A stretch of 63,981 bases of DNA, filler included, from Candidatus Woesearchaeota archaeon (GTDB taxonomy: Archaea; Nanobdellota; Nanobdellia; Woesearchaeales; WJIZ01), in assembly GCA_018221205.1 (NCBI GenBank). It is 7 parts of 7 records of this genome, joined end to end, with 100 filler letters (N's around TTAATTAATTAA, not from the genome) between each part and the next. Parts side by side here need not be neighbours in the genome. Positions count along the whole stretch, not along the records: positions 45,478 to 55,512 come from JAAOYF010000055.1; 6 more parts are not named here. One strand, given 5' to 3'. The translations under genes were made by a program, and so were the position numbers. This document shows, piece after piece, positions 6,525 to 61,528 of the stretch (the first letter of the stretch is position 1; each line of letters starts with the position of its first letter). The notes under the pieces were generated by a model. That model did no database searches and was not told where the DNA came from. It worked only from the letters and a program-made list of their open reading frames with translations.

Positions 6525-6604
6525 GTAGCCGCGTAAAAATATTTCTAAGAAGTCGACCTAAAGGTCGGGGAATTAAACCCCTGTGCTCGCTACGCTCGCA
6601 TTAA
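6525..6604 (+). repeat. 80-nt multicopy element end, copy 1 (IS200/IS605-like end or MITE)
   Basis: Near-identical to 55615-55694 and to the reverse complement of 61449-61528. Contains hairpin CGACCT-aa-AGGTCG and always lies at a contig end. Confidence 0.8.
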
Positions 6605-6607
6605 AGA

Positions 6608-6715
6608 AAGCCGCGTAATGGGGCTTTAGCCCCATCTTGCGTGTCAAGAATCGAAGATTCTTGATCATGATCAGAAATCTCTGATTTCTGACATGCCAAC
6701 CGAGCGTAACCAGTT
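6608..6715 (-). mobile_element. Cluster of nested small hairpin elements
   Basis: Hairpins ATGGGGC/GCCCCAT, TCAAGAATC/GATTCTTGA and TCAGAAATC/GATTTCTGA; the latter two are bounded by CAYG tetramers. 18-nt identity to tRNA-Gly intron 2. Confidence 0.55.
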
Positions 6716-30407: not shown

Positions 30408-30596
30408 ATGAAAGGCAAAAAGGGATATGTCATGGCTGGAGCTGGTTTCTTTATGATTATCGTCAATGCCCTTGATTATCTTTTGGGATGGGATATAGAA
30501 TTCACTCCTTTGCTCATCATCGGATTGGTTTTGGTTGTTGTAGGCATGAATATGGATGACCTCCTCCCCGACTTGAAAGTCGGGGTATCCGCTTAA
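30408..30596 (+). CDS. Small two-TM protein whose C-terminus runs into an IS end
   Basis: Hydrophobic ORF; the last ~12 codons are read from the IS hairpin. Confidence 0.55.
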   Translation: MKGKKGYVMAGAGFFMIIVNALDYLLGWDIEFTPLLIIGLVLVVVGMNMDDLLPDLKVGVSA

Positions 30597-30637
30597 GCTT
30601 CTGCGTGGTGTTGTTCTTGATTTACTATGTACTTGAA
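30556..30637 (-). mobile_element. tnpA: IS200/IS605-family element: tnpA 3' end and right end, truncated by gap
   Basis: Minus strand 30637-30593 reads FKYIVNQEQHHAEA* (Y1 transposase YIxNQ motif), followed by hairpin CCCCGACT/AGTCGGGG (30566-30585) and GGTCA. Confidence 0.8.
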
Positions 30638-54874: not shown

Positions 54875-54956
54875 AGAGGTCTTTCGAAATTATTTCGGAA
54901 ATTGCACTGGACAAAAATTCTTCTCACGTGGGATTTAAAAACAGTAGCCTGTTCTG

Positions 54957-55079
54957 AAAAAGAGGACACGCTCACCTGCTAAATTGTGATTTCCGGTTTA
55001 ACCAGAAATCACTTAGGCAGGTTCGCTCAATGTCCTCTTTTTCGTTGCTCCAAAGATCCAGCAATGGAGATCTTTGGAG
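54957..55079 (+). ncRNA. Conserved two-hairpin leader of a LAGLIDADG gene, copy A
   Basis: 86-nt hairpin, 5-nt spacer and 32-nt hairpin burying the GGAG of the GGAGGTG RBS; aligns without gaps to copy B with compensatory changes. Confidence 0.7.
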
Positions 55080-55089
55080 GTGTTTTGAA

Positions 55090-55512
55090 ATGAATTTATC
55101 AACAGATGAAAAATTGGCTGAGCTGATTGGTATTATGTTAGGGGATGGATGTCTTTGCAGAACTGCAAGACAAAGGCTTATCTATATTTGCGGACACAAG
55201 ACTGATGATTGCGAATACCATACTACTATTACTGCAAAACTCTTTAAAGACATTTTCAACAAGGAGATTAAAATCCATTTCAGAAATAATGTAAATGTTG
55301 TTTACATTAAATTCAGTGATAAGGAAATCTTCAGAACACTTCGTTCTTTACAGATACCGGTCGGAAAGAAATATAATTACTTACGCATTCCGGTTTGCAT
55401 TAATTCAGACAAGCTATTTTGTTCTTTAATGAGGGGGTTATTTGATACTGATGGTTGTGTCGTACTAAGTAGGCAACATAGAGAGAATCCTTACTATCCA
55501 AGATTAGAGATA
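55090..55512 (+). CDS. Two-motif LAGLIDADG endonuclease, 3' truncated by gap
   Basis: LAELIGIMLGDG and LMRGLFDTDG; shares GKK and PYYP with 21782-22501. Confidence 0.88.
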
Positions 55513-55614
55513 NNNNNNNNNNNNNNNNNNNNNNNNNNNNNNNNNNNNNNNNNNNNTTAATTAATTAANNNNNNNNNNNNNNNNNNNNNNNNNNNNNNNN
55601 NNNNNNNNNNNNGC

Positions 55615-55694
55615 GTAGCCGCGTAAAAGTATTTCTAAGAAGTCGACCTAAAGGTCGGGGAATTAAACCCCTGTGCTCGCTACGCTCGCATTAA
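55615..55694 (+). repeat. 80-nt multicopy element end, copy 2
   Basis: One mismatch to 6525-6604. Confidence 0.85.
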
Positions 55695-55815
55695 GATATG
55701 GAAGGTATTTCTTATAGTATCTTTAGTCTACTGTACTGCTCATAGGCTAGGTTAAATAGAGGAAATAGAAGAAATACGGAACGTTAAGCTTATAAAGAAA
55801 ATAACTGTTCCAACC

Positions 55816-55900
55816 TTCATGCCAACGTCGCATACTCAAAAATCTTTGTCGATTTTTGGTCGCGTCTAGACATTCACTTCGTTCATGCCAACGTCGCATA
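55816..55900 (+). repeat. 19-nt direct repeat of the tRNA-Ser 5' end flanking a 47-nt hairpin insert
   Basis: TTCATGCCAACGTCGCATA at 55816-55834 and 55882-55900; the insert holds CAAAAATC/GATTTTTG. Confidence 0.85.
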
Positions 55901-57514: not shown

Positions 57515-57618
57515 TGGACTGGCCGGGATTTGAACCCGGAGCCTCACCGCAATTGGGAATGGAGACAAACCTCCTATTCTTGCCAGCGGCGCGTTATACC
57601 AGATTTAACTACCAGCCC
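57515..57618 (-). tRNA. tRNA-Ala(GGC) with a 30-nt intron at 37/38 (57551-57580)
   Basis: GGGCTGG/CCAGTCC acceptor with G3-U70, C32-G38, anticodon GGC and a BHB-like intron. Confidence 0.9.
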
Positions 57619-58361
57619 AAACGTTCTGCTTTGAAAGGTCGGATATCCTTTAAAAACCTTGTGACGCTTTCTTGATGAAGTTGAAAACAATATCGCTTCT
57701 TCCATTTTTTGTGTTGTTGAGAATAATAACTATAGGAGTATCCAAAATCAACGAGTATGGTTTTTACCTGTCTAGCTAGACCTTCGCTAGTTGTATTGAA
57801 GCTAATGCGGATTCTGTTCTCTTTTTTCTTATATAATATGCTTCCATCTGTATCAAATAATCCTTTAACAAACCCCCTTTTGAATGATTTGGATACATCC
57901 ATTATCTTTAATTTAACTGTAGAGTGTTTAGATGTGGAATCATAATCTAAGAAATGAGAAAAGTATTCAAATAAAGCTTTTGAATATGTTCTAACTCGAA
58001 AGGTGTGTGCATCTTCACTGATGTGAAATTTTCTTTGAAAATGTTTTTCGAATAATTGTTTCACATACAATAAATAATCATTATTAACTTTGCCGACATG
58101 AACATTGATAGTATATTGATAATTCTTTGGATAAAAATATTGGCTCCCGTCTCCAGCAAAAATTCCCATTATTTCACCTGTTTGTTTGGTATAAGATATT
58201 TGAAATTTTGTGGGGGATTTTTTGTATGATGGATCGACGCCCAAGTACTTTATGGCCGTGTTTTTAGAGATTTTTAAGTCTCGGCAGATTGTTCTTTTTG
58301 AAAATCCTCTTCTCGACAGATATTTTATCTTTTGTAATTTCTCAACTGATATTTTATTCAT
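57609..58361 (-). CDS. LAGLIDADG endonuclease with N-terminal HTH
   Basis: GFSKRTICRDLKISKNTA HTH; GEIMGIFAGDG and FVKGLFDTDG; stop codon lies inside the tRNA-Ala 5' end. Confidence 0.9.
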   Translation of the reverse strand: MNKISVEKLQKIKYLSRRGFSKRTICRDLKISKNTAIKYLGVDPSYKKSPTKFQISYTKQTGEIMGIFAGDGSQYFYPKNYQYTINVHVGKVNNDYLLYVKQLFEKHFQRKFHISEDAHTFRVRTYSKALFEYFSHFLDYDSTSKHSTVKLKIMDVSKSFKRGFVKGLFDTDGSILYKKKENRIRISFNTTSEGLARQVKTILVDFGYSYSYYSQQHKKWKKRYCFQLHQESVTRFLKDIRPFKAERLGW

Positions 58362-58369
58362 AATTCCAC

Positions 58370-58492
58370 CTCCAAAGTTTTCGTGTTTTGAAACTTTGGA
58401 GCTCTTAAAAAGAGAACAATGAGCAAAACAGCATAATTGATTTTAGGCTTTGCCGAAAATCATTATTTAGCTGTTTTGCGTGTTCTCTTTTT
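58370..58492 (-). ncRNA. Conserved two-hairpin leader of a LAGLIDADG gene, copy B
   Basis: Hairpin 1 at 58407-58492 and hairpin 2 at 58370-58401; same lengths as copy A. Confidence 0.7.
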
Positions 58493-58556
58493 TGTAACAA
58501 GGACTTCTATATATGTCTAATCGAACAATAACCGAAAGAAATTTGACTTAAAAAGG

Positions 58557-58584
58557 GTGTTATACCAGGTTTAACTACTGGCCC
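58557..58584 (-). pseudogene. Degenerate tRNA-Ala 5' fragment (acceptor 5' strand plus D arm)
   Basis: GGGCCAGTAGTTAAACCTGGTATAACAC versus GGGCTGGTAGTTAAATCTGGTATAACGC (24/28); TATA-like box about 25 nt upstream. Confidence 0.85.
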
Positions 58585-58622
58585 AGACCTCTAAAGAACC
58601 TCTGAACCATATAAAAAAGTAT

Positions 58623-61399: not shown

Positions 61400-61448
61400 G
61401 TAAAAAAACAAGTAGAGAATATATATAAAGGTTATGGACAACAGTTTT

Positions 61449-61528
61449 TTAATGCGAGCGTAGCGAGCACAGGGGTTTAATTCCCCGACCTTTAGGTCGA
61501 CTTCTTAGAAATATTTTTACGCGGCTAC
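61449..61528 (-). repeat. 80-nt multicopy element end, copy 3
   Basis: Reverse complement of 6525-6604. Confidence 0.85.

Follow-up and report, generated by a model that had tools for sequence, protein, structure and literature searches.

The window, i.e. the whole stretch of 63,981 nucleotides analysed here, comes from the genome of a Candidatus Woesearchaeota archaeon (G000) and consists of contigs chained together with N spacers. It holds two LAGLIDADG nuclease genes that are each preceded by a structured leader, one at the end of contig C38 (copy 1) and the other on contig C39 (copy 2; Table 1). Since the copies lie on different contigs, their closeness and opposite orientation are a meaningless artefact, and the two are not neighbours. 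The covarying leader that it described in two copies is real: the copies form an ungapped inverted repeat of 133 nt (54950-55082 and 58367-58499; 72%), and the five compensatory swaps that it listed can all be read in the sequence, as can both bulges, the TATA-like box of each copy and the T run. In each copy, a long hairpin with bulges is followed by a T run, and a further hairpin covers GGAGGTG. On either strand, both copies reach z-scores of −7.1 to −10.7 in RNA folding, with 0 of 200 shuffles being as stable, and of −7.4 to −10.3 with DNA folding parameters.

Table 1. Coordinates of the two leader copies and adjoining features, counted along the window
Feature	Position	Strand	Basis
CACTGGACA box of copy 1, promoter element common to the host radA operon	54905..54913	+	position read in sequence
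TATA-like box of copy 1	54934..54940	+	sequence; type A spacing
Hairpin 1 of copy 1, type A	54956..55043	.	folding; model match E 5.9e-15
Hairpin 2 of copy 1	55048..55082	+	folding; sequence
Double-motif LAGLIDADG gene 1	55090..55512	+	family search; truncated by C38 end
Non-biological contig join, a spacer between two N runs	55513..55612	.	contig mapping
Intron-containing tRNA-Ala(GGC)	57515..57618	-	Rfam; contig mapping
Double-motif LAGLIDADG gene of copy 2, 250 aa, both acidic motif residues kept	57609..58361	-	sequence; family search
Hairpin 2 of copy 2, including the Shine-Dalgarno-like GGAGGTG (58373-58367)	58367..58401	-	folding; sequence
Hairpin 1 of copy 2, type A	58407..58492	.	folding; model match E 1.5e-16
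TATA-like box of copy 2	58506..58513	-	sequence
Diverged 30-nt duplicate of the tRNA-Ala 5′ end, 87%	58559..58588	-	score 44, control maximum 26

By the start-site geometry that we assume, transcription of copy 1 would begin near 54957-54962, i.e. at the first bases of the hairpin. Hairpin 1 of this copy contains the core found throughout the family (~54967-55029) and has an A run and a T run at its base. With DNA parameters, it follows the family in folding better on the minus (template) strand than on the plus strand (−27.9 vs −23.1 kcal/mol), and its TC/TC loop becomes a tandem G·A when read on the minus strand; the two strands of hairpin 1 in copy 2 fold about equally well. Most of the Shine-Dalgarno (SD)-like GGAGGTG of copy 1 (55076-55082) is contained in the 3′ arm of hairpin 2. 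Gene 1 breaks off at 55512 and its frame resumes on contig C74, which overlaps C38 by 83 nt; a tRNA-Leu then follows. The nuclease ORF of copy 2 stops within the first bases of tRNA-Ala(GGC), which is likely to be its homing target, and the diverged copy of the tRNA 5′ end marks the upstream edge of the cassette. No intact CACTGGACA box lies upstream of the TATA-like box of copy 2. The two proteins share 20% identity over 130 aa, and LAGLIDADG_3 matches the copy 2 protein at 2.5e-14 and the truncated copy 1 protein at only 5.5e-4.

The contigs themselves display two repeat families. An ~83-nt repeat, which we take to be IS200/IS605-like from its look, ends at least 10 contigs (55613-55697, 61445-61528 and 6525-6609 in the window), and a second family (30556-30636) ends about 11; the bodies of these elements seem to have collapsed in the assembly. 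In addition, the 5′ end of tRNA-Ser(GGA) is duplicated exactly over 19 nt, 66 nt upstream and with a small hairpin insert (55816-55834 and 55882-55900).

A leader family in three layouts

In G000, the core of hairpin 1 was found upstream of seven of the nine LAGLIDADG genes (seven loci). A pattern made from this core occurred in 27 of 401 genomes of the order, giving 51 matches vs one control match, and scanning a species-genome collection with it returned 109 stretches. A flank profile divided 148 pattern hits into 121 members, 99 of them distinct, and 27 chance hits, the latter being bacterial and coding-sequence hits that were discarded for their low flank-profile scores; three pattern hits in viral contigs also scored low and were likewise discarded. 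The covariance-model search of archaeal genomes proposed in the initial annotation gave hits tied to nuclease genes: model R1, built from 67 copies, added 60 further ones and found the element in 30 of 150 genomes of the order and, under stricter filters, in 0 of 131 genomes of the same class outside the order (one mis-anchored R1 hit, L241, was excluded). This amounts to 159 distinct leader copies, nearly all from Woesearchaeota-type archaea and labelled Woesearchaeota, Nanoarchaeota or Nanoarchaeia, with one each labelled Micrarchaeota and Promethearchaeota; many copies labelled ‘Methanosarcinales’ are the same loci as ones in the order (e.g. L057 and L016). Counted among the 159 are L021, L032 and L209 from genomes flagged as unpublished (G316, G208 and G132), on which no claim rests.

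RNAalifold recovered only seven inner pairs from the mixed alignment, so a structure of 19 pairs was named by hand and then counted. It pairs 88.4% of cells with 119 double changes and beats 500 of 500 shuffles; slid controls reach 31-46%, a comparison that favours the structure because it was derived from the same sequences.

Rfam holds two structured motifs linked to LAGLIDADG genes, LAGLIDADG-1 and LAGLIDADG-2. Unlike these, the leader has no match in Rfam 15: tRNAs were all that exceeded the threshold in the window, where no leader match appeared at E-values up to 10, and none of 20 leader loci gave a match at the gathering score. The comparison with Rfam that had been suggested at the outset, LAGLIDADG-linked motifs included, thus matched no family and bears out the idea of an undescribed structured element linked to nuclease genes. 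Within the literature searched, which largely excludes subscription papers, neither the element nor the box was found described; the supplement of PMC5737381 may cover LAGLIDADG-linked motifs, the term ‘LAGLIDADG’ being absent from its main text.

Three layouts can be distinguished. In type A (87 copies, both window copies included), the promoter is followed by the hairpin, the T run and another hairpin that covers the SD. Type B (46 copies) has the promoter and then a single hairpin, the base of which pairs an anti-SD-like arm with GGTGAT, and type C (26 copies) is built in the same way except that the promoter lies within the hairpin loop. Of the two-hairpin leader first proposed, only the core of hairpin 1 is family-wide; hairpin 2 belongs to one of the three layouts. 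The type C loop is 35-60 nt long and holds box and TATA in 26 of 26 copies, two of them as one-base variants, and the TATA begins 15-23 nt before the end of the core 3′ arm. Given the usual archaeal TATA-to-start spacing, the type C transcript would start inside that arm. As its promoter sits in the loop, the mRNA made from it cannot contain the hairpin, and the sense-strand RNA of ~85 nt that had been envisaged is not supported as the general form in the face of these 26 copies. The promoter of types A and B lies upstream of the hairpin, so that, by position, a transcript without the 5′ arm would arise in type C and not in A or B. The orientation of flanking genes does not separate the layouts, and same-strand upstream genes, for which a read-through model would predict enrichment, are not enriched at type C (9 vs 10).

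Pairing of the SD is present in every layout, through hairpin 2 in type A and through the basal stem in types B and C; the anti-SD sequence used for pairing is one that we presume, and the 16S 3′ end was not found in G000. In 58 type B and C copies, 382 of 464 basal-stem cells are Watson-Crick pairs, and the mismatches lean to the sense strand (G·T 26 vs A·C 15), in a count that the fixed, G-rich SD biases. Such pairing is what would be expected of a pure sense-strand mRNA leader of the T4 type, in which the hairpin sequesters the RBS or attenuates, the type C promoter bypasses the hairpin, and any strand bias of the core is a by-product or eases melting of the stem. The type A start site, which by position is the first base of the hairpin, also speaks for such a leader, as does the likeness of type C to the phage arrangement outlined in the accessible parts of PMC2988022 and PMC2677866. 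Overall, we consider this explanation doubtful. The core can be separated from the SD stem: L292 (1279-1323) and L293 combine a box promoter with a putative nuclease-type ORF and have only a short anti-SD/SD stem, the core being absent. Since the basal stem stands alone in these two loci, the core has a separable role, and the strand on which it folds is the second point that weighs against a sense-strand leader.

Strand preference of the core

The initial annotation had seen no G-U evidence to tell RNA from DNA. The family does supply wobble evidence, and this points to the antisense strand. With RNA parameters, the core has the lower energy on that strand in 145 of 158 copies (81/87 type A, 40/45 type B and 24/26 type C), and with DNA parameters it does so in 80 type A, 32 of 45 type B (a weaker bias) and 22 type C copies, kin among the copies not being independent in these counts. 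Stem mismatches were read on the sense strand in the 60 copies found by the model only, which are free of the constraints of the search pattern; they contain 42 A·C vs 11 G·T mismatches, and the inner-stem G-C pair has turned into A·C or C·A 13 times and into G·T never. Counting once per cluster, with 8 loci of other bulge sizes omitted, gave A·C 51 vs G·T 19 across 67 clusters, and 8 of 12 stem positions lean to A·C and four to G·T. Both arms change alike, meaning that the A·C excess is not conservation of one arm; fourfold sites reveal a mild skew of C over G on the sense strand (−0.10 to −0.14), which favours A·C a little. As a control, the radA leaders were examined, and 18 of 25 folded better on the sense strand.

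Internal and terminal loops carry a strand signature as well. A 2 × 2 loop that reads TC/TC on the sense strand, and hence tandem G·A on the antisense strand, occurs in 45 of 150 copies, and in 44 cases both arms provide a pyrimidine-GA-purine context; GA/GA on the sense strand was seen in 0 of 150. For tandem G·A in DNA, a context rule exists. Among 124 terminal loops, GNA triloops account for 25-31 on the antisense strand and for none on the sense strand, with only five GNRA loops and no UNCG loops. GNA mini-hairpins are far more stable as DNA than as the RNA equivalent that was tested, according to the accessible part of PMC13037366. Together, the antisense bias, the tandem G·A and the GNA loops suggest a DNA-type signature of the core on the antisense strand, and of the possibilities first raised, it is that of a single-stranded DNA hairpin that gains most support, for the core only.

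For a pure sense-strand leader, all of this is awkward: A·C prevails over G·T by cluster, tandem G·A and GNA loops are confined to the antisense strand, and the radA leaders behave in the opposite manner. Even the type C core, where only a stable blocker would help, has 22 A·C vs 5 G·T mismatches. The antisense bias would be equally accounted for by an RNA made in cis from the antisense strand. Folded through G·U and tandem G·A pairs, it would silence the nuclease mRNA as antisense RNAs of plasmids or type I toxin-antitoxin systems do, and the type A antisense hairpin does also end in a U run. Yet, such a U run is missing behind the hairpin of types B and C, no conserved antisense promoter was seen by eye in the alignments, GNA triloops outnumber GNRA tetraloops and UNCG loops are absent, and the genes downstream of the cassette are convergent in about half of the loci (50/101), all of which makes an antisense RNA quite unlikely.

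Homing cassettes, the radA box and leader exchange

The 132 downstream ORFs of at least 100 aa comprise 115 that are LAGLIDADG-related, 9 of other nuclease types (three Mrr_cat, three HNH_repeat, endonuclease I/DUF559, Vsr and PDDEXK_3), 3 non-nuclease ones and 5 without assignment. Family hits account for 87 of the LAGLIDADG ORFs (49/76 at E 0.01 and 38/56 at E 0.001), and 28 further ORFs were linked to such hits by local profile or BLAST. The initial annotation had allowed for a generic MITE or for hits unlinked to LAGLIDADG genes; with 124 of 132 ORFs being nuclease-type and the distance to the start codon being fixed, the leader does not behave as a generic MITE. An association with LAGLIDADG genes alone did not hold up, given the nine genes of other nuclease types.

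A tRNA lies at the nuclease stop codon in 27 of 121 loci, and cassettes adjoin conserved genes such as uS9-rpoN, MCM, rtcB, htpX, ppsA and hisS. Diverged duplicates of a host gene end flank 7 of 60 cassettes, the tRNA-Ala copy included, vs 1.1% of control pairs. The ORFs lie outside introns and inteins, beside conserved genes and with signs of co-conversion, an anatomy that matches free-standing homing endonucleases, whose cleavage of the empty site is predicted from this arrangement.

Several loci deserve separate mention. L118 and L120 have a convergent reverse-transcriptase gene downstream of the nuclease (RVT_1 in L120, a similar C-terminus by eye in L118), which we assume to be DGR-like. 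In L257 and L237, insertions of the IS200/IS605 type lie directly behind the leader, just past the start codon (Y1_Tnp in L257, an end-like palindrome in L237). L004 (contig C40 of G000) is a LAGLIDADG gene with neither box nor hairpin. On each side of it lies a version of the opening ~10 codons of the gene downstream, presumably an S-adenosylmethionine synthetase-like one.

The CACTGGACA box occurs 14 times in G000 and its reversed sequence 0 times. It is found upstream of the radA operon (a small gene plus radA) in 26 of 30 genomes, mostly 20-24 nt ahead of the TATA box and at a density of 39 sites in the 32 kb upstream of radA vs one in 138 kb of gene and downstream DNA; box and TATA form a common pattern in 38 of 41 genomes, which G000 escapes through its longer spacing. 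Among the leaders, 64 of 81 type A and 25 of 45 type B copies have the box upstream; some cassettes are without it, such as copy 2, just as L292 and L293 are without the core. In three genomes, 20 further box regions have first ORFs that encode Cas4-like, RNase_H_2, DEAD-type helicase, radical SAM-HhH and DUF763-HhH proteins, or Bro-N, YhcG and methylase families, and several without a family. R1 detected no hairpin before these host box genes and no more than a weak match ahead of a further LAGLIDADG gene. Because the box precedes host genes that have no hairpin, it can be assigned to the host and the hairpin to the cassettes.

An oriented motif at a fixed distance before the TATA of radA and repair genes is the hallmark sought for an archaeal DNA-damage regulon, and the CACTGGACA box shows it. 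By gene content and by analogy with the UV-response promoter motif TTTCACTTTCA of haloarchaea (accessible part of PMC2556686), the CACTGGACA box may well respond to DNA damage; the two motifs differ in sequence, and induction was measured for the halophile motif and is inferred for this one.

Just upstream of its start codon, the small gene before radA (L153-L182, e.g. L159; L183) shows a conserved TTGAAAYAAAANGCGAANAGCAAGGAGG-like stretch. Its leader folds better on the sense strand, and the 94-aa protein that it encodes has no Pfam family. Between radA and an acyltransferase gene, L110 (= L020) contains an orphan type B leader followed by a 7-codon ORF and is likely a cassette minus its nuclease.

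Leaders are exchanged between nucleases. Of 42 leader pairs with at least 80% identity, 35 precede proteins without significant similarity, and 15 of 25 multi-member protein clusters mix layouts, as illustrated by L044 (type B) and L048 (type A), whose proteins are 64% identical. The nearest leader belongs to the same genome in 31 of 55 cases vs 5.9 expected (67 copies, 17 genomes). With pairs of related proteins and one same-genus genome pair omitted, identity within vs between genomes is 0.72 vs 0.64 for type A and 0.78 vs 0.66 for type C, where the loop with its host-adapted promoter is included; in type B, sharing a genome does not raise the identity (0.64 vs 0.65). The points of exchange lie at or after the start codon. 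Leaders are either copied within a genome or follow a partner in the host.

These swaps bear on the proposal that the LAGLIDADG protein itself binds the leader, as an RNA partner or as a self-binding site; the initial annotation had spoken of an RNP partner or autoregulatory site. Apart from the 115 of 132 downstream proteins that are LAGLIDADG-related, the proposal can draw on the presence of LAGLIDADG_3 in 34 of 34 motif-positive genomes vs 19 of 30 others. The leader, however, also precedes Mrr_cat, HNH_repeat, Vsr and PD-(D/E)XK genes, and it swaps between unrelated proteins and follows the genome rather than the protein, so that such a role is scarcely probable.

Known systems and a proposed expression module

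Homing endonuclease genes of phages T4 and Aeh1 (I-TevI, I-TevII, I-TevIII, segB and mobE) have hairpins that sequester the RBS (PMC2988022). In the part of that source at hand, these hairpins are like the leader in covering the RBS of a homing nuclease and in having a promoter whose transcript is without the 5′ arm, as in type C here. They belong to phages and a late promoter, whereas the leader belongs to a cellular archaeon and a radA-type box of its host; moreover, a single core is swapped here among unrelated nucleases, is antisense-biased and, in types A and B, has its promoter upstream. In fractured phage genes, hairpins stand before free-standing GIY-YIG and Vsr-like nucleases in 15 of 16 cases (accessible part of PMC2677866). 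Compared by description, they resemble the leader in that two stem motifs are conserved and a promoter is embedded in a hairpin found ahead of several nuclease families; they differ in their phage late promoter TATAAATA and in being interpreted as RNA hairpins, and the host genes here are mostly unsplit. By this analogy, the leader may work like the phage homing-nuclease hairpins, being at most a candidate member of that class.

DNA mini-hairpins of the GCGNAGC type are described for the phage G4 origin, RSF1010 ssiA and N4 promoters in the accessible part of PMC13037366. Like the core, they are GNA-capped and lie on a template strand; unlike them, the core has a long bulged stem and a loop able to hold a promoter, and it is not known to have a primase or polymerase partner.

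Three RNA-based classes were tried and rejected. In a bulge-helix-bulge, each strand has a 3-nt bulge and 4 bp lie between the two; the type A bulges are ~13 bp apart, and types B and C have no outer bulge. In a kink-turn, a 3-nt bulge adjoins tandem G·A, but in the 45 of 150 copies with antisense tandem G·A, the bulge is 2 bp off or absent. Retrons encode an RT in cis and a single transcript with msr and msd; an RT-like ORF is present at two loci only (L120 by Pfam, L118 by eye), and the type C transcript lacks the hairpin.

The likeness to integron attC sites extends further. Both have AAC/GTT pairs (C-G in 86 of 89 copies here), extra bases on one arm, a variable and here purine-rich terminal loop, GAA-type loops, and a bottom strand made more stable by G·T pairs, in the same orientation and with the same strand bias, as far as attC is described in the accessible part of PMC5027507. 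In favour of an attC-like site at which a tyrosine recombinase moves nuclease cassettes, two copies also adjoin XerA-like genes and 5 of 19 XerA-like genes have the box. The leader nonetheless differs from attC in having no RYYYAAC/GTTRRRY complementarity, with GTTTCRC or GTTTCAA as its 3′ box, and in a spacer that is paired, pairs on either side of the would-be crossover covarying, instead of boxes with an unpaired spacer. There is one site per gene, upstream, with both arms co-inherited; second sites after the genes, arrays and an IntI-type integrase were not found, and exchange occurs at or after the start codon. Two genomes rich in copies, G000 (seven copies, 95% complete) and G001 (at least six, 91%), gave no PF00589 match, and neither a tyrosine recombinase nor a Y1 transposase was found in G000. 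R1 had no match near 20 recombinase genes, and with no repeated site either, the idea that these loci are integrons using the leader hairpin was dropped. All in all, movement by a tyrosine recombinase is very improbable. More generally, no partner protein of the core was found, tyrosine recombinases occurring in 28 of 34 genomes with the hairpin vs 28 of 30 without.

The recombinase loci are of interest in themselves. L270, L271, L272, L280 and L282 (also L275-L277) represent another XerA-like class of recombinases, which are often located at the ends of contigs, with the CACTGGACA box in 5 of 19 examined; several have a conserved inverted repeat of their own upstream, others a dif-like palindrome directly upstream. 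In L081 (110-1565), inverted repeats and dif-like sequences beside xerA enclose the hairpin, a gene for a four-helix bundle and one further gene; this is possibly a small island integrated at dif.

The explanation that we prefer, and to which we give an even chance, is that the leader is a portable expression module used by unrelated free-standing homing nucleases of Woesearchaeota-type archaea, tiny organisms of groundwater, with a logic like that of T4 plus a template-strand hairpin. The base of the hairpin is predicted to conceal the RBS, and the core is predicted to fold on the template strand, probably in single-stranded DNA. The architecture of the module is well supported, and the role of the core is its weak step. 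A point against this explanation is that the induced mRNA of types A and B still includes the SD stem. DNA damage or DNA uptake would activate the CACTGGACA box, which would likely switch on the nuclease together with recombination and radA; the nuclease would cut the empty allele, and RadA would copy the cassette in. Read-through RNA from host operons would stay untranslated, its SD being paired. Once the cassette becomes single-stranded during recombination, the template-strand hairpin might be bound by a host protein and act as the handle for copying the leader to further nuclease genes within that genome. On a more tentative reading, which we hold possible, the core would be a single-stranded DNA site of a new kind, with attC-like physics but no integron, that lets a damage-inducible promoter-leader hop onto new nuclease genes. 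If true, Woesearchaeales would share an SOS-coupled ‘ignition module’ that makes homing elements of LAGLIDADG, PD-(D/E)XK, Vsr and HNH-repeat proteins.

To the question of how the free-standing homing nucleases of cellular archaea obtain their expression signals, spare their host and coordinate cutting with recombination, the module provides a testable answer in the form of a 9-bp box common to radA, an SD-pairing stem and a strand-specific hairpin. The module further singles out over 100 divergent nucleases that probably target the genes beside them. It also illustrates that a covarying ‘leader RNA’ can bear a DNA-type signature, which RNA motif searches confined to the sense strand would misread.
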